Part shown: piece by piece, positions 230-63,540 of the stretch | Numbering within the stretch: the stretch's first letter is position 1 | Layout: every line of letters begins with the position of its first letter | Origin: Calditrichia bacterium | GTDB lineage: Bacteria; Calditrichota; Calditrichia; RBG-13-44-9; J075 | Assembly: GCA_028284445.1 (NCBI GenBank) | Contig: JANQRS010000026.1 | Span: forward strand, 41,653 to 105,652 | Length of the DNA stretch: 64,000 nt | Direction of reading: 5' to 3' | Program-made: the position numbers and the translations under genes | The notes under the pieces: model-generated | What the model saw: only the letters and a program-made list of their open reading frames with translations | Databases searched by the model: none | What the model was told of the DNA's origin: nothing

Positions 230-1162
230 TTAGCCCGATTTGACGGATCGGAACAATCTATACCCCACCAAATGCAAATATCGCGATGCGATGAACAGAT
301 CCAGCAATAGGCGCCACGAAACACCCGTACGGGCACAGAGGTAGATCGGTTGCCAGTCCGGGGAAAATTTCTGTTTAAAATTAAATAGTCCCTGGTAGTC
401 GTATGCGAAGCGCAGCGATTGCCCAATTTTGAAGAACGCTTTTGATTTCAGATTGGGGAGCTCATCCGGCCCAACAAAGGGGACTTCACCGAGGTTGAGA
501 TAGCGGACGCCCTCCCTTTGCAGATGCTCAGCGGTATGACAAATCAATGCCTCCATGATGCCAGCCGGGGCATCCCGATGCTTTAAAAGCACTTCCGTAT
601 GAAACATGTTTGGGCCGGGCCTGCTCAAGGTGATTGCCCCCAGCCAGTTTCCATCTTCATCACAAAAGCAGAAACAGCGCATCTTCGGCCACGGCCTGTT
701 CCTGAACAGAAATCGCAGCTGCGGCTCGCGTCCATGGCGGGAGGCTTTTAGGAGCTCGCAGAATTTCGCAGACGTCGCCGCAGAGGGGGCAACCTCAAGA
801 ATTTTACCATGGCGTTTTCCGCGCCGGGCAAGTTCGCGAAGAGACCGTTTCTGCCAGGTTTTTGCCGATACATCCAGAATGGCTTCCACGCCGACTTGCA
901 GCGCATCCCAGCCAGCGGTCTGCAACCGTTGTGTAAGGAATTGACCGCAGCCGCGAATCACTGCTCGCTCTGGCAGGGAGGCGAGCAATTGTGTATCGAG
1001 TTCCGTCGTGGCGTCAAAGGGGATCTCCGCGGCATAAATCCATTTTGATCTGGAAATCGGGAGCGCGATTCTTTGCATTTCCGCAGCGCCTTGTCCACCA
1101 ACAGCCCAACTGAGTGGCAGGTGGAATGCCGATGAGGTTTCCGAGCTTACCGAATTGCCCAC
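230..1162 (-). CDS. Stand-alone MprF/LPG synthase C-terminal (DUF2156) aminoacyl-transferase-like domain protein; true start may be the ATG at 1078
   Basis: Motifs GIMEALI...LNLGEVPF and YDYQGLFNFKQKFSPDWQPIYL are typical of the DUF2156 GNAT-like domain; no multi-TM flippase domain. Confidence 0.8.
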   Translation of the reverse strand: MGNSVSSETSSAFHLPLSWAVGGQGAAEMQRIALPISRSKWIYAAEIPFDATTELDTQLLASLPERAVIRGCGQFLTQRLQTAGWDALQVGVEAILDVSAKTWQKRSLRELARRGKRHGKILEVAPSAATSAKFCELLKASRHGREPQLRFLFRNRPWPKMRCFCFCDEDGNWLGAITLSRPGPNMFHTEVLLKHRDAPAGIMEALICHTAEHLQREGVRYLNLGEVPFVGPDELPNLKSKAFFKIGQSLRFAYDYQGLFNFKQKFSPDWQPIYLCARTGVSWRLLLDLFIASRYLHLVGYRLFRSVKSG

Positions 1163-3318
1163 TCGCGCCTCGTGTGTTCCGTTTCCGGAATGTCGACTTC
1201 GATCATTTGATGAAAAGGGAAAGTCTCGATCATCGTGTTGTTCTGACGGACGGAAATCTGAAACCCAAGAACATCCCCGCCTTCGATGCCCAGATCTTCA
1301 AAGCTGATGGCAATTTCCAGGCATTCTTTTAAGCGGAATGATGGATTGAGCAAGTGACGTAGCGGTTCGTCGCCCAGCGGCCCAAATCGATCCATCACGC
1401 CACGCAATGGAGAAATGGTAATCAAATACTGCAGCGGCATCTTGATAGAAACAACGAATTCATGCATCAATAATGGTGCTCGACGAAAATCAATTCGCAG
1501 GAAGAGAGTGGTTTCATTAAAGCCGACGAAGAGCTGTTCCATCATTTGTCCATCCGGGTCCGGGGTGCTGAGAAATGCCGACTGCAAATTGTATGCGGCA
1601 GCGCCTTGCCATTCATCCCGATGCGATTCCTTGCCATCGATCGTTGGCCGAATCATTCGTTCTGGTTTAATGGACATGAAACGGGTCATTTCACCCTGCT
1701 TGATGGTTTGATAGAGTTCGGGAGGAATTTCCGCACCGCAAATTTCGTAAACCTGCATCAGGTTCTCGCGGAAGAGCTGATCGAGCTCCAGGTCCTGATC
1801 GGAGGCGTGTTCTTCGCCGTACCACCAATACCAGTCAGACCCTTCGGTTATATAGATATGCTCCCAGGCTTGCTTTAGCAGATCTTCCGGCAGAACCCCT
1901 TCCTGCTCCTTGGCGGTCAGGAAAGCGCGGGTCATGCGCAATTGTTCCCAGGCGCGATTGTCTTCTTCGGAGCCAATCCAGACGTTGAAGCTGTTATTCC
2001 GCCAGCTCCCGGGAATCAGCCGGGGCAGATTCTCCGCTTCAGATGTACGCTCCAGAAAGCCGGAGAAAGTGGTGGTCGTTACTTTCTTGTCCTTGCTCAG
2101 CCGTTCAAAGAGGCGGGCAAGAAATGGATAGCCGGCATCTTTATAGTGATTCCAGAATTTATCACCTAGCAGCACAATGCTAACCAAATGATGCTTCAGG
2201 GAAGCAGCGCCGGAGCGCTTGACGATGCGGCGGCGAATCGTGTAGAGACGATCCATGAAATCGTCGACTGCCTCGTCAATATCCCACTTATGATAAACCA
2301 CGCGAATGGCGTCCGAGAGGTAGTGATCGCGGAAAAATATATCCAGCGGACGGCCGTTTTGGCTAAAGCGCCAGGGGCGATATCTTGAGACACTGTCGTG
2401 TCGTTTCCCGAGGCTGCGGATGAGGATACTTTCATCAGTAGCAATCCAGCGAATGCCGTGGCGCTCAAGCAATCTCGCCGCTGCTTCGGATATCCCGCCC
2501 TCGGGCGGCCAAATGCCTTCCGGAGTCTGGCCAAAAATCTGATCAAAGGTTTCGATCCCTTCCCTCAACTGATCCGCTGCGTCATCCGGAAACGCGATAG
2601 GTGGCAGCGGAATCTGCAAGCCGGGACGGGCAGCCAATGCGCTTTGCGTATCGAGCAAGAGGGGGATGACCGGATGATATTTGGGAGAAGTTGTCAACTC
2701 AATACGCTTGTCGGACAACGCCCGCTGATAAGCCGGTAGCATTTCCTGAATGAGTAGACGGGTTTCTTCCAGCAGCAATTGTTTGTCTGCTTCACTAAAG
2801 TCGCTTCCTTTATCGAATAAATTTTGGATTGCCGGTTTGCGACGACTCAGCTGGCCAATCCAGGTTAGGTTATACCACACCTGGGTATCGAGATAGTCCC
2901 TTGTTGTGAATTGATCAATGATATCCGGCGCTTCCGCCTTACGTCGCAGTGCTTTGTAGCGATTGTAGAGCTCATAATACCGCGGATAGGGTTTGATCAT
3001 GTTTTGTGACTTGGCTACGAAAAAGTTGTCGAGGATTGTTGCCTTATTTTCTGCCGTCAGTTTATTGGCTGGTATTTCGCTGAGTATCCAGATCAGGTCT
3101 TTGGCATCGTTCTCGGCATAATCCTGCAACTGTATTAACAAAGAAGGCGTGATGTTTATGGTCTGTTGAATGCGTGGATAATCATCCAACAGTTTCAGGA
3201 AATCGAGGTAGCTGCGGGTCGAAAAGAGGCGCACCCAGGGCATCTGGTAATAACCACGGGCATTTTTCAAATATGGCTGGTGGTGATTCCAGAGGAATGC
3301 CAGTTGTAGTTTTTCCAT
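1147..3318 (-). CDS. Glycoside hydrolase family 57 protein (amylopullulanase/alpha-amylase-like)
   Basis: LWNHHQP, MPWVRL, GIWPPEGG (nucleophile Glu), W..GSW and EGSDWYWW conserved GH57 regions; ATG at 3318. Confidence 0.9.
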   Translation of the reverse strand: MEKLQLAFLWNHHQPYLKNARGYYQMPWVRLFSTRSYLDFLKLLDDYPRIQQTINITPSLLIQLQDYAENDAKDLIWILSEIPANKLTAENKATILDNFFVAKSQNMIKPYPRYYELYNRYKALRRKAEAPDIIDQFTTRDYLDTQVWYNLTWIGQLSRRKPAIQNLFDKGSDFSEADKQLLLEETRLLIQEMLPAYQRALSDKRIELTTSPKYHPVIPLLLDTQSALAARPGLQIPLPPIAFPDDAADQLREGIETFDQIFGQTPEGIWPPEGGISEAAARLLERHGIRWIATDESILIRSLGKRHDSVSRYRPWRFSQNGRPLDIFFRDHYLSDAIRVVYHKWDIDEAVDDFMDRLYTIRRRIVKRSGAASLKHHLVSIVLLGDKFWNHYKDAGYPFLARLFERLSKDKKVTTTTFSGFLERTSEAENLPRLIPGSWRNNSFNVWIGSEEDNRAWEQLRMTRAFLTAKEQEGVLPEDLLKQAWEHIYITEGSDWYWWYGEEHASDQDLELDQLFRENLMQVYEICGAEIPPELYQTIKQGEMTRFMSIKPERMIRPTIDGKESHRDEWQGAAAYNLQSAFLSTPDPDGQMMEQLFVGFNETTLFLRIDFRRAPLLMHEFVVSIKMPLQYLITISPLRGVMDRFGPLGDEPLRHLLNPSFRLKECLEIAISFEDLGIEGGDVLGFQISVRQNNTMIETFPFHQMIEVDIPETEHTRREWAIR

Positions 3319-3324
3319 TGTTTT

Positions 3325-3508
3325 GCTCACTGCGTTCGCGTCAACTCACTGTGCTCGCGTCAGAGGCTTCGCCTCGTCAGCTCGTTTCACTCGCGTCAAT
3401 TCGCTTTGCTCATGTTACATCCCCCTAAATCCCCCTTCGAAGGCAGGGGGATTTAGGGGGATGTAAACGGCGAGCTTGCGAGCCTGACGCTGGCGACGCC
3501 AGCTGACG
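3325..3508. repeat. Composite REP-like element: five GTCA-spaced 17-19 nt mini-hairpin units, a 48-bp C/G-tract palindrome, then two inverted units
   Basis: Units GCTCACTGCGTTCGC-GTCA, ACTCACTGTGCTCGC-GTCA, GAGGCTTCGCCTC-GTCA, GCTCGTTTCACTCGC-GTCA, ATTCGCTTTGCTCAT-GTTA; palindrome at 3417-3464; TGAC-led units at 3465-3508. Confidence 0.85.
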
Positions 3509-3517
3509 GTCACAGGC

Positions 3518-4981
3518 CTATGGCCTGACGGCGCGAAGCGCCTTTGCCGCAGCGTTTCTCTCTTCGTCAGTTAAGATCCAAAATACCGCAATAATGAGTG
3601 ATAGGGCCACCAAAAGGAGGCGCAGCCATATCGATAAATCCAGCAAGTAATGTGCCATCATCAACCCGATCAATCCAACCGAGATTTTCGCGATCCGGCC
3701 CCATTCAATAGGTATCGGAAAGATTCGGTCAGAAACGATAAATATTGTGAGCGCCATGGTCATATAGCTGATCAAGGTGGCCCAGGCAGCGCCCCAAATG
3801 TGCAGATGAGGCAGCAAAATGATGTTGGCTACGATGTTTAAAACCGCACCGCTGCCGGTAAAGATAATCATGTATTTGCTTTTCTTTGTGATGTAAAAGC
3901 CGGGTGTCAATATCACATAAATACCGTAAAAACAATATGATAGTAGGATGATAGGGATGATGTCGATTGCCGACCAAAAGGGTTCGCCCAGGAAGTAGAA
4001 GCTGTCGAAGTATTTGAATGTCAGGATATCGCGAATGAAAAAGGTGCCGAGCAGGGTGATAAAGCCGGCCCCAAGCAGAAAGTAGCTGAGTACCCGTGAG
4101 TAAATCTGACGGGCGCCGTCTTCCTTGGCGATTTTCAGGAAGAAGGGTTGCCAGGCATTCTTGAAGGCATTAATGAGCAGTAACAACACAGTCCCGAATT
4201 TATAATTGGCCCCGTAAATGCCCACGGCGTCTTTGTCGAGTATAACCGGAACGATTAGGCGGTCAATCATTTCAATCGCTGTGAAGGCAATTCCATGCGG
4301 CAAAAACGGCAGTCCAAAAGCGAGCATTTCCTTGCACAGCGGGATGTCGATTTTCAAGTTCAGATAGCGAACAATGATTGGCAACATCACCAGGAAGTTG
4401 ACAATCGAGGCAGTCAGGCTGGTGTAGAGAATGCCGATGACGCCGGTCTTCAGGAAGACCACGAAATAGATGTTCAGACTGAGCTCCAGCAGGAAACGAA
4501 AGACCCGGAATGAGGTGAACTGGATGGCTTTTTCTTCCGCCCGCAAAATCAGATATGGCAAATTGCCAAGCGCATCAAAAAACAGGATGAAGCCGCCGAG
4601 TCGGACAAAATTTGCATAATCCGGACTCTTCAGTATCAAATCCGCCAGTGGTTCACTAAAGGTAACCAGGATAACGGTGGTGACTAAGCTGGTGCAAAGC
4701 AGCACCACAAAAGTCGAGGAAAAAACGGTTTTGCGATCGCGCTCACCGAGAAAAAAGTAGCGCAGCATCGCGGAATCCATCCCGTAGGTATAGAAGAAAT
4801 ACATGAAGCCCAGGAAGGTGAAAATGACCACGAAGTCGCCAAAATCGCTGGTGGTTTTAATGTATTCGGGATTGGTATAGATAGGAATGAGCAGAAAACC
4901 GGAGAGTTTTTGTACTGCCGTGCTAATGGCGTAGATCGCCGAATGCTGGGCCAGTCGCCCGATTTTCTTGAAGATGCTCAA
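3518..4981 (-). CDS. Oligosaccharide flippase (Wzx/MOP family polysaccharide biosynthesis protein)
   Basis: About 12-14 hydrophobic segments; N-terminal Y.IS..VQKL.GFLLIPIYT and VGIYGANYKFG motifs. Confidence 0.85.
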   Translation of the reverse strand: MSIFKKIGRLAQHSAIYAISTAVQKLSGFLLIPIYTNPEYIKTTSDFGDFVVIFTFLGFMYFFYTYGMDSAMLRYFFLGERDRKTVFSSTFVVLLCTSLVTTVILVTFSEPLADLILKSPDYANFVRLGGFILFFDALGNLPYLILRAEEKAIQFTSFRVFRFLLELSLNIYFVVFLKTGVIGILYTSLTASIVNFLVMLPIIVRYLNLKIDIPLCKEMLAFGLPFLPHGIAFTAIEMIDRLIVPVILDKDAVGIYGANYKFGTVLLLLINAFKNAWQPFFLKIAKEDGARQIYSRVLSYFLLGAGFITLLGTFFIRDILTFKYFDSFYFLGEPFWSAIDIIPIILLSYCFYGIYVILTPGFYITKKSKYMIIFTGSGAVLNIVANIILLPHLHIWGAAWATLISYMTMALTIFIVSDRIFPIPIEWGRIAKISVGLIGLMMAHYLLDLSIWLRLLLVALSLIIAVFWILTDEERNAAAKALRAVRP

Positions 4982-5914: not shown

Positions 5915-8900
5915 TTAGGAATCCGAACTTGCAGATAATTGAGACAATTGGTCGTACAGTTTTTGTATACTTTCCTTTAATTCGTCATCTGAGATTTCAT
6001 GTTTATGAACTGCATATCCCAAATCCGTGACGGATTGCCTAATCGAATTTGTGAGGTGGTCAAAGTTTCTAGAAGCCAGTATTGCCAGGGAATCTAATAT
6101 TTGCAAAAAATCATCGCGTTCCTTAATACCTTCAAAGGATATTGTTCCATCGGCAAGAGTAAAATGACTTATTGGTTTGATCTCGAGAATCTTCTCAAGG
6201 TCGTCGATACCTACCCTGGCTTCGCGGATGCGTTCAGCGATAGCTAACAAGCTATCGCATTTCCTAATCGTATCGCGTGGAATACCAAAGGACATTAGGT
6301 TTATTGCATTTATGAGGCTGGGATCAACAATAAAATCTCGTGATTTAAGATAATTGATAATGATTTTTTCATTAGACTCAAATGGTAGTGGAGGAACATG
6401 CTCGATATGATCAAATGCACTGTCCATTTCGGTTTTTGTTCTCTCACTTTTATCCATAAATGCGTTATATGAATCGGAAGCCAACGATAAATAATAATAA
6501 ACACTTCGAATCTCGAACATGCTTCTCATTCTGATGATTGCCTTTCTGAGATCTGAAGCATCAGTAATCCTATCTAATTCATCAATAGCAACGATCAACC
6601 GCCAGTTACTTTTCGATTGGCCAAAGGCTCCGGCATTGAGCCGTTCTATGCAAAATCTGATAAAGCTTCGATAGTCTTCAATGGATGTTGTCCAGGATTG
6701 ATCTTCCTCTTGCTTTTTCGACAGTTCTCGACTCAATAAAAAAGATCCAAAGAAAATTGTTGCAGTAGAGAGAAGTACAATAATATGTGAGTTAAGAGTT
6801 TGAGAGTCGTTGCTTCCATGTTTATAAAAGTCAACTGGATAAATGAAATATGAGCCAATTGTTGTATGAGATGTAAATATCTCGACTAACCAATTGAAGA
6901 GAATCATGACAATAAATGCCAACGCTACGAACTGCGTTAATCTCAGCCAATAGATTCTTCTATATGTTGTCGTATCGTAGCCAAACAAAACTACAAGACA
7001 CCGCTCATAAAGAAGTTCCAGGTGAGGATTGTTTTTTGGCGATCGTCTGAGCCAAAATCCAAGGTCTTTTCTCTGCAATACTATCGAGGCTGCTATCCAC
7101 ATAGAAATTGTGACAATAAGTGTAAGGCCTACAGGCATCCATATGACCGATGAGTCCAATCTCAAAATAGTTGATTCTGCGACCTGGGTTAAAACATAAA
7201 TTAAGATAGCTACGCCCAATACGAGGCGGATTGCTAAATTGTGGGCATCTTCTCGAAGCTCTCTTTCTGCCATTGAGTTAGCCCCGATATGATTACTAAT
7301 TCGATTCTCTAATATCTGCGCAACCCTGCTTTGCACACCTCGTACAATTGGAACCTCATCAAATTTGGTCGGTGCTTGCAACCAGACACCAATGAAATCT
7401 TCATCGCTATTTTGAGGGATATTCTCATTCACCAGCTCTTTTAGAATTTCGGATTTACCAACTCCTCTTGGGCCAATCAACGCAACCGTATTCCAGCCTC
7501 TTTTAGCATACGCTCTCAAATTAACCAATATGTTGCTTCGTCCTTGAAATTGTGTGGGACTTTCAGGCGGGCGACCTGCACGAACTCCGCGGCGATTGGC
7601 AACGTCTTCTGCCTGGGCGATTATCGCAGAGCGATTTAACAACAGCCGGCCGCCCCAAAGGCCAATAAGGAGTGATAAAGCGACGAAGGGAAAAACAAAT
7701 GTAGATGCCAAAATTGTGCTAAACGATGCGCCGAATCCTTCCGACATTCTGGCTTGAGAAATTACATATCCAAGCACGGATGGTGCATCGGGAGTACCTC
7801 CACCATATAATTTGACAGCTAAATGGTGTAAAAGTTTTTGCCTGGTTTCTTTATTCTCAATGTCTTTAAATCGTTCTATGTAATGCGACAACAACTTAAA
7901 TTCTTTGGGGTCTTCTTCACTAAGTTTTGAATCATCTTTTAGATAGTGCTCGTCTGACCAAACAACTGAAATCGGTGAAGACAATATCATAAGATGTTTT
8001 TGAACTCTGTCAAATTTATCTTCATTGCTTCCAGAACCTGTTCCAAGTGATTCTATAAAGCTAATCAATTCAGGACTGAGGAGTTGAATTGCCAAACCTG
8101 CTTGACCACCTGATTTTAGAAGGGTTGATAAATCCCCTCTAGTAATACCACACTCCAGAAATCTGTCGCGAAAAAGCTCTGCTCGTTTGAAGGCTTCATC
8201 TTTATCAACAACCGCAGGTTGCTCAGACGGTTTATCACTATTGTCCTCGTCTTCGGAGGGTTTAGGTACGATTTTAATATTTTTGACAAAAAAATCTACA
8301 AGTCTTGAATTGTTTTTGTCAATTTTGGAATCATAAATCTCAAAAAGTCCAGTGGAAACGAGGTCAGGAGTTTTAGAATCCGACATTAACTCCAGATCAG
8401 GGATGAGACTGCTTAGTTCTTGACAATCTATTAATTTGAAGAGCACTTCTATTCGTTCGCGTGAATTGGCCAACTCATATAGAACGGGCAGAGCATTCGA
8501 ATCGAAGTCATATTGTTCATTCGCAATACTTATCTTGCCTGAATTCTCCAGAGCAACTTGTTGATATAATAAAAATGTAATACCTGATTCAAAAACAAGA
8601 GGTAGCGACAATTGAGATATTAACATGTTACTTGAGTGAAAATTAGTGATGCGAGGAAAGACGCCATTCATGTTTCTCAGGAACTGCTTTTCTTCCTCCT
8701 TATCTTCGCGCGTGTTTTCGATTGGGCCGTAGTAATACCCTGAGGAGCGCACTGGCCTTAAGCCATACGTTCTTGCTAGATTTATTTGCGCATATTTCAG
8801 GACTGTTTCATCAAGTTCACGATGCCTTTCTTCAGAATCGAGGCCTGGCAGGCCGATACTGCTACGAGAAAAATCGACAGAAATCGGGTGCCGCCATTCC

Positions 8901-9880
8901 ATCCGTTTTACCAGAAACTCAATCCTTTCCTCTGCAGACATGACACGAGTTCCGAGCAGGAGGTTATTCGTAGTTGAAAGATAGTCAAATTGCGAATAGC
9001 CCGTATTGGATTTCATCTCATAGGACCAATCTATTCCGTAGTACCAGCGGTTTAATGACCTCAGTCTCTCTTCTCTTTTTCTTCTTTTCTCAAGTTCTTG
9101 AAGGGTGGCGTAAAAATTTGTCCTGTAAAAATCGTTTAATTCTATTTCAGATGCTATGCGGTAAAATCTCTGTATATACTCCGGCTTTAATTTCGCATTA
9201 ATATCCTGAGCCAAAACGTACGTTTCGTCATCAAGTTGGGCAGGTGTGGTTCGTTGCACTAACGTACTTTGCACCAAAGATTTTCCGCTACCGAGACAAA
9301 CCACAAATAGGCCAAAGCAAATAATCAATAAAAGCCCTTTAGATTTCTTTTGTTTAAAATCTATGACTCTCGGAAACTCAGCTATAAAGAAGCTGGCAAA
9401 AATGATAATTAGGATAGGAATAGCTATCCAGTATGGAAGCGCCGGTTCGACAGTTGTTTCGATTTGCACATCCATAATTGGACTGAGAGGTCCACCCTGG
9501 CCTAAAAGCATAATGAAAATCGATGCTAATGCTAAACTCCAAAGAGATCTCTCAAGTCTATTCGCTTTCCATGAGAACGTGATTATAAAACCAACCACTA
9601 AAGCGCCAAATGAGAGAGCGAGAATTGGGTAGTAAGAAACCGTAGGCTCTGCACCAGCAATAATCATTGAATGACCTGCAGTGAGTACAAAGATAGCGCA
9701 GCAGCCCCAACCCATTGCTAAATCTGCATAACCATTGAAGTGCCTCTTCGTCTCAATTGGTTCCTGGGCCGAAGGTGCAAATATTTTCCTTAGCCAGTCG
9801 TGTAATGCATTGGCTACTAATGCAAATGTAGAAATGGCGAGTTGAATAAAATTAAGAATTTCGATGAGACTGTCTTGCAT
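5915..9880 (-). CDS. Large multi-pass membrane protein with a KAP-family-like P-loop NTPase domain
   Basis: Walker A GPRGVGKS (7451-7474) and Walker B LIVAIDELDR (about 6569-6598), separated by about 4 predicted TM helices; about 7 further N-terminal TM helices; visibly AT-richer than the flanks. Confidence 0.7.
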   Translation of the reverse strand: MQDSLIEILNFIQLAISTFALVANALHDWLRKIFAPSAQEPIETKRHFNGYADLAMGWGCCAIFVLTAGHSMIIAGAEPTVSYYPILALSFGALVVGFIITFSWKANRLERSLWSLALASIFIMLLGQGGPLSPIMDVQIETTVEPALPYWIAIPILIIIFASFFIAEFPRVIDFKQKKSKGLLLIICFGLFVVCLGSGKSLVQSTLVQRTTPAQLDDETYVLAQDINAKLKPEYIQRFYRIASEIELNDFYRTNFYATLQELEKRRKREERLRSLNRWYYGIDWSYEMKSNTGYSQFDYLSTTNNLLLGTRVMSAEERIEFLVKRMEWRHPISVDFSRSSIGLPGLDSEERHRELDETVLKYAQINLARTYGLRPVRSSGYYYGPIENTREDKEEEKQFLRNMNGVFPRITNFHSSNMLISQLSLPLVFESGITFLLYQQVALENSGKISIANEQYDFDSNALPVLYELANSRERIEVLFKLIDCQELSSLIPDLELMSDSKTPDLVSTGLFEIYDSKIDKNNSRLVDFFVKNIKIVPKPSEDEDNSDKPSEQPAVVDKDEAFKRAELFRDRFLECGITRGDLSTLLKSGGQAGLAIQLLSPELISFIESLGTGSGSNEDKFDRVQKHLMILSSPISVVWSDEHYLKDDSKLSEEDPKEFKLLSHYIERFKDIENKETRQKLLHHLAVKLYGGGTPDAPSVLGYVISQARMSEGFGASFSTILASTFVFPFVALSLLIGLWGGRLLLNRSAIIAQAEDVANRRGVRAGRPPESPTQFQGRSNILVNLRAYAKRGWNTVALIGPRGVGKSEILKELVNENIPQNSDEDFIGVWLQAPTKFDEVPIVRGVQSRVAQILENRISNHIGANSMAERELREDAHNLAIRLVLGVAILIYVLTQVAESTILRLDSSVIWMPVGLTLIVTISMWIAASIVLQRKDLGFWLRRSPKNNPHLELLYERCLVVLFGYDTTTYRRIYWLRLTQFVALAFIVMILFNWLVEIFTSHTTIGSYFIYPVDFYKHGSNDSQTLNSHIIVLLSTATIFFGSFLLSRELSKKQEEDQSWTTSIEDYRSFIRFCIERLNAGAFGQSKSNWRLIVAIDELDRITDASDLRKAIIRMRSMFEIRSVYYYLSLASDSYNAFMDKSERTKTEMDSAFDHIEHVPPLPFESNEKIIINYLKSRDFIVDPSLINAINLMSFGIPRDTIRKCDSLLAIAERIREARVGIDDLEKILEIKPISHFTLADGTISFEGIKERDDFLQILDSLAILASRNFDHLTNSIRQSVTDLGYAVHKHEISDDELKESIQKLYDQLSQLSASSDS

Positions 9881-30410: not shown

Positions 30411-30454
30411 ACATCCCCCTTTATCCCCCTTCGAAGGTGGATAAAGGGGGATGT
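30411..30454. repeat. C/G-tract palindrome, TTCGAA-centred subtype
   Basis: ACATCCCCCTTTATCCCCCTTCGAAGGTGGATAAAGGGGGATGT, one mismatch. Confidence 0.9.
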
Positions 30455-48610: not shown

Positions 48611-48655
48611 CACATCCCCCTGAATCCCCTTCGAAGGAGGACGTAGGGGGATGTG
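48611..48655. repeat. C/G-tract palindrome, TTCGAA-centred subtype (degenerate)
   Basis: CACATCCCCCTGAATCCCCTTCGAAGGAGGACGTAGGGGGATGTG. Confidence 0.85.
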
Positions 48656-61338: not shown

Positions 61339-61380
61339 ACATCCCCCTCTATCCCTTCGAAGGGGGATAGAGGGGGATGT
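61339..61380. repeat. C/G-tract palindrome, TTCGAA-centred subtype
   Basis: ACATCCCCCTCTATCCCTTCGAAGGGGGATAGAGGGGGATGT. Confidence 0.9.
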
Positions 61381-63365: not shown

Positions 63366-63385
63366 GAATTTACTTCGTTCGTTGG

Positions 63386-63540
63386 ACTCACTATGTTCGC
63401 GTTAGTTCGCTGCGCTCACGTCAGGGCCTTCGGCCCCTCAGCTCGTTTTACTCGCGTCAGGCTCGTAAACTCGCCGTCAGTTCGCTGCGCGAAACATCCC
63501 CCTGTGTCCCCCTTCGAAGGGGGATTCAGGGGGATGTTTC
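63386..63540. repeat. Second composite REP-like element: GTCA-spaced mini-hairpins plus TTCGAA-centred palindrome (63491-63540)
   Basis: Unit types and central order match 3325-3417, with compensatory stem changes. Confidence 0.85.

Follow-up and report, generated by a model that had tools for sequence, protein, structure and literature searches.

TGAC-linked mini-hairpin arrays in a Calditrichia bacterium: a dispersed intergenic repeat family resembling REP and BIME elements

Among described bacterial repeats, the systems closest to the element reported here are the repetitive extragenic palindromes (REPs), the bacterial interspersed mosaic elements (BIMEs), and the REP doublets (REPINs) that are linked to REP-associated tyrosine transposases (RAYTs). 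These are short GC-rich extragenic palindromes, present at high copy number and marked by an unpaired tetranucleotide tag; they occur in mosaic clusters, prefer the gaps between tandem or convergent genes, and form lineage-specific families (PMC3733652). We analyzed 64,000 nucleotides of a Calditrichia bacterium (GenBank assembly GCA_028284445.1, contig JANQRS010000026.1, positions 41,653 to 105,652 of the forward strand), hereafter the window, in which the spacer between two minus-strand genes (window 3319-3570) holds an array that shares these properties. In this array the word TGAC and a mini-hairpin of 13-16 nt make up one unit, and the units follow each other head to tail in two diverging arms (window 3325-3542). 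With moderate confidence, we read the region as one copy of a dispersed, non-coding, REP/BIME-like system whose units would fold as single-stranded DNA (ssDNA), turn over, and spread through an activity supplied in trans. This reading builds on what is observed: the anatomy of the array, its strand asymmetry, the covariation of its stems, its spread through the genome, the divergence of its arms, relatives with other linkers, sites that are occupied in some genomes and empty in others, and the duplication of a unit.

The likeness to REP systems is partial. The REP tag is GTAG (GT[AG]G), whereas the units described here carry TGAC, and unlike GTAG REPs they have stems of 5-6 bp closed by triloops. 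REPs typically form head-to-head or tail-to-tail dimers (PMC3733652), in contrast to the head-to-tail order of TGAC units within an arm. A REPIN doublet consists of two near-identical inverted REPs; the TGAC arms are also inverted, but the unit content of the left and right arms differs. BIMEs combine REPs in alternating orientation with conserved motifs between them, whereas all TGAC units of an arm share one orientation. Finally, a RAYT system is expected to include a RAYT gene flanked by the same inverted repeats, but the RAYT and the IS200-type TnpA of this genome are flanked by others. A sequence-only reading of the window had proposed a REP/REPIN-like family. Dispersed short extragenic hairpins with a conserved single-stranded tag, compensatory stem changes, and a one-strand signature do support a REP/BIME-like system; the REPIN part of the label does not fit, as the arms are mosaics rather than doublets.

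Another class of REPs carries the tag CGTC (CGTC-1 to CGTC-4; PMC3733652), and the complement of the TGAC junction reads C-GTCA, but in structure only the tag is similar. CGTC REPs also have no dedicated transposase and in some cases, in Neisseria and Wolbachia, likewise form large clusters, but they possess 8-9-bp stems that start with A-T, loops of 4-5 nt, and a CCA tail (PMC3733652); the stems of TGAC units start with G-C, their loops measure 3 nt, and they have no tail. Rfam covariance models, including that of the Gut-1 RNA motif (RF01706), yielded no family match with E <= 1, whether in the window region or among arrays from relatives.

The hairpins themselves follow known rules for DNA. 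Stable DNA mini-hairpins obey the d(GCGNAGC) rule with a closing C-G pair (PMC13037366, PMC3201870), and the TGAC units present the same C-GNA-G loop and closing pair. Tandem sheared G.A pairs are favored in CGAG-type contexts (PMC10085684), and the same GA/AG tandem with a 5' pyrimidine and a 3' purine is found in the TGAC units, where the sheared geometry is predicted. Triloops of the GNA type closed by C-G are a DNA rather than an RNA optimum (PMC13037366). Natural mini-hairpins are known as ssDNA signals such as the phage G4 origin, ssiA, and the N4 promoters (PMC13037366, PMC3201870, PMC10085684). Those are single functional sites that differ from the TGAC units, which are found by the hundreds in arrays and are known from their sequence.

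The array and its neighbors are as follows (window coordinates):

3325-3343, minus strand: left-arm unit 5, the outermost, TGAC-GCGAAC-GCA-GTGAGC, of tandem G.A type; 6 nt separate its end from the ATG of the GH57 gene.
3344-3362, minus strand: left-arm unit 4, TGAC-GCGAGC-ACA-GTGAGT, tandem G.A with two G.T wobbles.
3363-3379, minus strand: left-arm unit 3, TGAC-GAGGC-GAA-GCCTC, whose 5-bp stem is perfect and whose loop is of the mini-hairpin type C-GAA-G.
3380-3398, minus strand: left-arm unit 2, TGAC-GCGAGT-GAA-ACGAGC, of tandem G.A type.
3399-3417, minus strand: left-arm unit 1, the innermost, TAAC-ATGAGC-AAA-GCGAAT, with a variant lead that overlaps the outer bases of the palindrome.
3415-3466, no strand assigned: central palindrome of 52 bp, TTACATCCCCCTAAATCCCCCT / AGGGGGATTTAGGGGGATGTAA, with perfect 22-nt arms at 3415-3436 and 3445-3466.
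3465-3484, plus strand: right-arm unit 1, AAAC-GGCGAG-CTTG-CGAGCC, with a variant lead, tandem G.A, and a 4-nt loop.
3485-3503, plus strand: right-arm unit 2, TGAC-GCTGGC-GAC-GCCAGC.
3504-3525, plus strand: right-arm unit 3, TGAC-GGTCACA-GGCC-TAT-GGCC, aberrant or degenerate.
3526-3542, plus strand: right-arm unit 4, TGAC-GGCGC-GAA-GCGCC.
3543-3570, plus strand: degenerate tail, TTTGCCGCAGCGTTTCTCTCTTCGTCAG, reaching the stop codon of the flippase gene.
1147-3318, minus strand: glycoside hydrolase family 57 (GH57) gene, downstream of the array.
3571-4981, minus strand: gene of a Wzx-like polysaccharide-biosynthesis membrane protein (flippase), upstream of the array, with its stop codon at 3571-3573.
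63366-63493, minus strand: a second locus, a single arm of about six units that stops at the start codon (ATG, 63365) of a gene encoding 374 aa.
63494-63537, no strand assigned: palindrome of the second locus, a member of the CATCCCCC..GGGGGATG family placed at the arm's inner end.

The five minus-strand units read exactly as had been claimed from the sequence, and the units do flip to the plus strand on the right of the palindrome; the right arm, however, contains four units rather than two, and the element does not end at 3508 but extends over about 3325-3570. Six matches to the strict motif TGAC-NNGANN-N3-NNGANN were found in the window against 1.74 expected (0/100 shuffles). The order of unit types at the second locus is identical to that of the first, and its perfect-stem unit is altered on both sides of the stem, from GAGGC/GCCTC to GGGCC/GGCCC.

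That stem pairs vary while remaining complementary had been noted within the window, and a formal covariation analysis extended this observation to the whole genome. Units were picked solely by TGAC spacing (17 or 19 nt) in chains of at least three. These sets supersede an earlier shuffle test whose units included copies of an AGGATT 9-mer repeat that has nothing to do with the family. Under a 5-3-5 model, 86.3% of cells were paired relative to 61.9 +/- 2.0% when the 3' letters were shuffled (0/500); controls with slid partners paired in 30-51% of cells, and each of the three middle pairs was represented by six pair types. The four outer pairs of the 15-mers were paired in 82.3% of cases compared to 68.3% in shuffles (0/500). 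At the two central positions of unselected 15-mers, we observed G.A/A.G in 21-22 of 48 units and Watson-Crick pairs in 17-18, which indicates two sub-classes within a single frame. The GA-type arms read R-Y-G-A-R-Y, which is the Y-GA-R context of tandem G.A pairs, and RYGARY-GNA-RYGARY was matched 110 times versus 10 times in the control. Compensated variants (GCGAAC/GTGAGC, GCGAGT/ACGAGC) and forms with swapped arms (GTGAGC/GCGAAC) all have the GNA loop, and likewise the GA, on the strand that reads TGAC. Among perfect 5-bp units, for which no condition was set on the loop, the triloop was GNA in 71 of 86 and TNC in 3-4. A closing C-G pair was counted in 43 of 51 units.

The TGAC units are not confined to the two loci of the window. 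Parsing of the whole assembly (8.19 Mb, 48.7% GC) yielded arrays numbering about 75-85, with no fewer than 225 units in all: strict clustering gave 84 arrays with 224 units and chain parsing gave 73 arrays with 236 units. Arrays were detected with our own regular expressions, and both array counts are too low. Strict contiguous-chain detection undercounted arrays and its reversed-genome control was misleading; class-based detection was used instead. The pattern TGAC-N4-C-GNA-G-N4-TGAC was found 72 times genome-wide versus once in the reversed control. For every hairpin class, TGAC was by far the commonest 4-mer before the hairpin; the classes comprised 70 units of GA type, 88 of five bp, 23 of six bp, and 25 of GGCGAG type. 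The internal lead was TGAC in 143 of 163 cases; the innermost, or first, lead was variable and of the form NNAC (TTAC, AAAC, TAAC). Units are regularly spaced by 17-19 bp. GA-type units are concentrated at the inner end of the arms (62% of first units and 29% of middle units), whereas perfect-stem units are found in the middle (67%).

The layout of the arrays is polarized with respect to their centers. Neighboring arrays were arranged as minus then plus 13 times and never as plus then minus, and of 26 cases in which an array lies beside a palindrome, the TGAC strand points away from the palindrome in 25. Arrays are intergenic (median overlap with open reading frames of 0) and frequently abut stop or start codons. 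They are enriched in gaps between convergent genes (30% versus a baseline of 14%) and depleted in gaps between divergent genes (7% versus 19%). Their orientation relative to flanking genes is unbiased, with 25 arrays in the same and 27 in the opposite direction, and no replication-strand bias was detected by GC skew or by gene-strand majority (44:40 and 47:37). Because orientation is independent of transcription, folding in DNA fits these data better than folding in RNA, and a strand-specific signature that ignores the direction of transcription argues against a role in RNA only. Three other identities were considered and rejected: CRISPR, as the arrays have no spacers; attC sites, whose size and architecture do not fit; and CsrA-type GGA-loop decoys, as GGA is the rarest of the GNA loops.

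We then compared the arrays to those of related genomes. The TGAC-linked pattern had 0-1 matches in each of 40 relatives. The GA-type hairpin pattern without a linker was found 397 times in genome G011 (33 in the control) and in moderate excess in G003, G010, G008, and G019; a loose pattern with variable gaps returned only noise. G011 shares hairpin types with the TGAC genome (GTGAGC-GCA-GCGAAC, GCGAAC-GAA-GTGAGC, ACGAGC-GAA-GCGAGT, GCC-GAA-GGC, and GCTGGC-GCA-GCCAGC) and the same diverging layout, with the linkers AAACATC or AAATATC; its arrays often show two-unit higher-order periods of 38 and 45 nt. The closest relative that we found is contig L108, on which GH57 is 72% identical at the amino acid level and the gene order is identical. 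Orthologous sites compare as follows:

Flippase-GH57 spacer, with TGAC arms and palindrome here: arrays with TGAC-type linkers in L108.
Same spacer in G011: arrays with CAATGAC (AATGAC) and AAACATC linkers.
Same spacer in G007 and G012: 25 nt only, an empty site.
Upstream of the locus-2 gene, with a TGAC arm and palindrome here: an AAACATC-linked array in L109 (61% identity).
Amidohydrolase-aceE spacer, with a TGAC arm and palindrome here: gene-less inverted arms of heptamer type in G003 and G010, nothing in G011.
Downstream of PtrB, with a diverging TGAC arm pair without palindrome here: empty in genomes without the family; G011 has no orthologue.

As the sequence-only reading had suggested looking for, both occupied and empty sites are thus found in relatives. 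The L108 spacer additionally contains one exact tandem duplication of a 19-nt unit. By the comparison of orthologous sites across genera, the array family is old within its bacterial family. Occupied sites can persist across genera while unit content and linkers turn over, and the linkers are largely genome-specific, TGAC being a lineage-specific linker only. Outside the phylum, TGAC-linked arrays of C-GNA-G hairpins occur at no fewer than four loci (L004, L049, L056, and L058) of a Pelovirga sp. metagenome-assembled genome (MAG), CWP5-2.bin.96 (Desulfuromonadota). These arrays have a four-unit higher-order period and are preceded by CAGAAGC-type and TGACNNN heptamers; one of them stops just upstream of a CopZ-like gene. 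Most other matches in the scan of contigs across genomes were single chance matches in high-GC genomes. Matches in Chitinophagaceae MAGs (L053, L062, L043, L052, L059, and L072) were rejected as family members since they represent a different 17-nt tandem repeat, CCGG-TGAC-TCACCGG-AGGNNG, which lies directly upstream of genes and contains the TGAC word by coincidence.

The palindrome at the center of the window array had been described as a 48-bp part of it. It is indeed a palindrome, 52 bp long, but it belongs to an independent repeat family. Palindromes of the form CATCCCC..GGGGATG number about 237 in the genome; 214 of them are without a neighboring array, and a palindrome is missing from 56 of the 84 arrays. 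Their consensus is CATCCCCCT-NNN-TCCCCC-TTCGAA-GGGGGA-NNN-AGGGGGATG, and the internal 3-nt blocks are often unpaired with each other. The copies in the window are these:

30411-30454, 48612-48654, and 61339-61380, in addition to those of the two array loci (3415-3466 and 63494-63537).

The family is located at gene ends and at the centers of mini-hairpin arm pairs, and many relatives without TGAC arrays also carry it, in 5-35 copies. At the orthologous L108 spacer, the diverging arm pair is centered on GTTTAAAC without a palindrome, and the window palindrome occupies exactly this central position (GTTT-[palindrome]-AAC). These comparisons indicate that the palindrome is a separate family, inserted at the center of the arms. 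In Rfam, the palindrome produced only sub-threshold look-alikes of microRNAs (miRNAs) and CRISPR direct repeats.

The genome contains two Y1 transposase genes, both with HUH (histidine-hydrophobic-histidine) and Y-x3-Q motifs. The first (C59:77000-78600) is a true RAYT (NF047646, 195.8 bits) flanked by GTAG-GTCGGATTAGCC REPs, and these GTAG-tagged GTCGGATTAGCC REPs have about 27 copies genome-wide; an 88-nt tandem repeat lies downstream of this gene. The second (C72:17400-18400) is a TnpA of IS200/IS605 type (NF033573, 76 bits; HVH and Y-IEN-Q motifs) and has on both sides, inverted, a two-hairpin element of its own, which measures about 60 nt and has about 33 copies. This element reads xxAC-ACGGC-GNA-GCCGT-TACATAGCACAGCC-..-GTTCGC-N5-GCGAAC, and its ACGGC-GNA-GCCGT hairpin belongs to the same class as the five-bp TGAC units. 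The dispersed copies of the element lie inside heptamer arrays. No TGAC units flank either gene. The Y1 gene of G011 likewise has its own repeat, GGCCC-GAA-GGGCC, and 36 of 41 relatives possess Y1 genes, whatever the abundance of their arrays. The earlier proposal that TGAC is an analogue of GTAG and that a RAYT mobilizes the units, along with the search for a RAYT or IS200 TnpA flanked by such units, therefore finds no backing: the RAYT is paired with GTAG REPs, the TnpA with its own element, and the spread of Y1 genes does not follow the arrays.

Arm pairs of a comparable design surround a protein gene. Eight genes of the PF05635 family, the 23S rRNA intervening sequence (IVS) protein with the TIGR02436 four-helix bundle, are present in the genome (hereafter IVP genes); we take this family to include Avd, the accessory protein of diversity-generating retroelements. 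Each of the eight lies between inverted arms built of tandem units of 7-9 nt, including GGCGTTGA, GGAATGAT, CATTGAAG, the heptamers TGACCAA and TGACAAA, and the 9-mer TGACTAAAG. Examples, all outside the window, are the following:

C36:14691-15400, IVP cassette.
C35:32768-33400, IVP cassette.
C43:1-520, IVP cassette.
C4:1-700, IVP cassette.

Three of the cassettes sit within about 200 nt of contig ends, so the assembly was probably broken by the short repeats. Inverted arms lie on both sides of four of the five IVP genes of G011; for the fifth, which is a pseudogene, a clear arm is seen on the upstream side only. Mini-hairpin arrays make up the arms in one case in each of the two genomes: in the TGAC genome, a C-terminal IVP remnant lies at the center of a diverging pair of TGAC mini-hairpin arms (C56:11936-12100), and in G011 an intact IVP gene lies at the center of a long diverging AAACATC pair (G011:C56:101964-102284). 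The cassettes differ from the arrays in containing a gene, whereas the window locus and nearly all other arrays do not; no PF05635 gene lies between the arms of the window loci. Either most arm pairs are old gene-less derivatives of such cassettes, or their centers attract insertions, as with the palindrome. A TTGTGGAATTT-like motif, TT(G/A)TGGAATTT(T/C), is found 20-60 nt upstream of IVP genes and of both Y1 genes (C72, C59, C43, C25, C6, C23, and C56), and may be a shared promoter. No published description of inverted arms of the IVP type was found in the literature searched.

The short units of these cassettes resemble the heptamer direct repeats of other bacteria (the cyanobacterial short tandemly repeated repetitive sequences and the TAACTGA repeats of Beggiatoaceae; PMC4679880), which are likewise short, tandem, and intergenic and change by steps of whole units. 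In the TGAC genome the heptamer-type repeats share the TGAC word (TGACGAA, TGACCAA, and TGACTAAAG), but unlike TGAC units they form no hairpin. In relatives they occupy the site upstream of aceE, with GGGCAAAT/GAGCAGAT and CAATTGA-like units in the arms, in L151 (G003:C42, around 168915-169035) and L152 (G010:C22). TAACTGA repeats point toward start codons (PMC4679880), whereas TGAC arrays do not. It is conceivable, albeit improbable, that mini-hairpin arrays and 6-9-nt tandem repeats are two outputs of a single process that writes units outward from a center, on one defined strand, and is tied to IVS-protein cassettes; a dedicated enzyme acting on ssDNA could be at work, or a templated addition akin to telomerase or reverse transcription. 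If true, such a process would explain the genome-specific linkers, the common TGAC word, the divergent polarity, and the presence of Pelovirga arrays in an unrelated phylum.

Returning to the favored REP/BIME-like system, we infer a copying mechanism, and possibly a host benefit, along these lines. Units would fold whenever the strand that reads TGAC becomes single-stranded, as they presumably do in vivo. Slippage, template switching, or recombination would act at the linker repeats to add, remove, and exchange whole units. New loci, and a linker specific to the genome, would arise when loci are copied onto one another through a putative trans-acting ssDNA activity. The arm pair would represent the inverted arms of a small cassette whose center may be empty, hold an Avd-like IVS-protein gene, or be hit by another repeat.

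Several observations weigh against this reading. That the arrays are mobile we infer from their distribution, and no enzyme is tied to the units. Array detection is incomplete; the C56 arm, for instance, was missed. The centers of gene-less arrays contain neither an IVP remnant nor the promoter motif, with one of about 85 loci showing a gene remnant, and the link to cassettes could instead mean that array centers are hot spots of insertion. That arrays persist for long at orthologous sites may be due to a function for the host instead of selfish turnover. Regarding the hairpins, G.T pairs outnumber A.C pairs by only 21:10 with a parser that favors G.T. Nearest-neighbor folding of the left (GA-type) arm with ViennaRNA revealed no excess stability with DNA or RNA parameters (z of +0.4 to +0.7) and no difference between the strands. 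Conventional folding models fail for the mini-hairpin motif according to a review cited here; the case for the predicted folding is based on covariation and known motif rules, not on predicted energy.

Four further explanations must be weighed against the favored one. That the units are REPs mobilized by an HUH Y1 enzyme (a RAYT or an IS200-type TnpA) that nicks and joins at the hairpin plus TGAC on ssDNA strikes us as unlikely, although we place it ahead of the other three. The genome encodes two such enzymes, and the hairpin of the C72 element, with its 5-bp C-GNA-G class and the same 'AC' on its 5' side, is the sole hint toward an HUH link. To this can be added the GGCCC-GAA-GGGCC repeat that flanks the Y1 gene of G011, the frequent TTAC of first leads, which is an IS608-type target, and the ssDNA-type features that are independent of transcription. 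Yet neither Y1 gene adjoins TGAC units and both have families of their own (about 27 and 33 copies), Y1 genes are widespread in relatives that mostly lack arrays, the linkers differ by lineage (TGAC, AAACATC, AATGAC), and the head-to-tail arrays do not resemble head-to-head or tail-to-tail REP dimers (PMC3733652). Slightly less probable in our view is a passive origin, in which hairpin-prone minisatellites expand by slippage and quasi-palindrome correction and disperse by ordinary recombination, having neither a function nor a factor dedicated to them. The exact duplication in L108 and the two-unit periods of G011 (38 and 45 nt) are what slippage would produce, and templated correction rather than selection can maintain complementarity. 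But slippage leaves the dispersal to about 85 loci unexplained, as well as the invariant divergent architecture (13:0 and 25:1), the preference of GA-type units for arm ends (62% versus 29%), the GA.AG mismatch that escapes correction, the restriction of GNA to one strand, and the genome-specific linkers.

We are also doubtful, a shade more so, that the arrays act in RNA, as hairpins of 3' untranslated or intercistronic regions that protect mRNA ends, terminate transcripts, or set their processing, the linker serving as a site for a protein or RNase. The location at gene ends, the enrichment between convergent genes, the depletion at divergent promoters, and the frequent contact with stop or start codons all agree with this possibility, as does the site upstream of GH57 that is kept across genera; transcripts leaving the center in either direction would carry the GNA-sense arm. 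On the other hand, there is no orientation bias relative to flanking genes (25:27), and antisense GA-type units, half of the transcribed copies, would contain U.C/C.U mismatches that should keep them from folding, although they are conserved. The lack of an Rfam match and the DNA optimum of C-G-closed GNA triloops (PMC13037366) also speak against RNA. Far less probable than any of these is that the arrays are double-stranded sites made of protein-binding words (TGACG, GCGAGC) that organize the nucleoid or insulate genes. Integration host factor and gyrase bind BIMEs, and the regular spacing of 17-19 bp, the conserved words, the intergenic location, and the persistence at orthologous sites are compatible with such a role; fixed half-sites, however, predict neither freely varying complementary stems nor the asymmetry between GNA and TNC.

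One further observation concerns the setting of the window. A 1321-aa KAP-type NTPase gene (window 5915-9880) has no counterpart on the syntenic L108 contig, where a lactamase-like gene and lexA are adjacent, which identifies it as a lineage-specific insertion.

New in this family are the combination of a linker with a DNA-type mini-hairpin as the repeated unit, the head-to-tail diverging arms, the distribution across the bacterial family with lineage-specific linkers, and the association with short tandem repeats and IVS-protein cassettes. Although REP-type repeats abound, their origin and role are poorly understood outside a few Proteobacteria, and this family offers an unusually clean test case. 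On the practical side, the arrays break assemblies and yield spurious open reading frames and miRNA-like or CRISPR-like matches. The rules of the most stable DNA mini-hairpins hold on one strand regardless of gene direction, which points to intergenic DNA that is repeatedly single-stranded in vivo. Since different genera share the hairpin repertoire but not the linker, a co-evolving trans factor should exist, and comparative genomics could reveal it. Through their tie to IVS-protein cassettes and to heptamer repeats, which have long gone unexplained, the arrays would join three orphan features of bacterial genomes.

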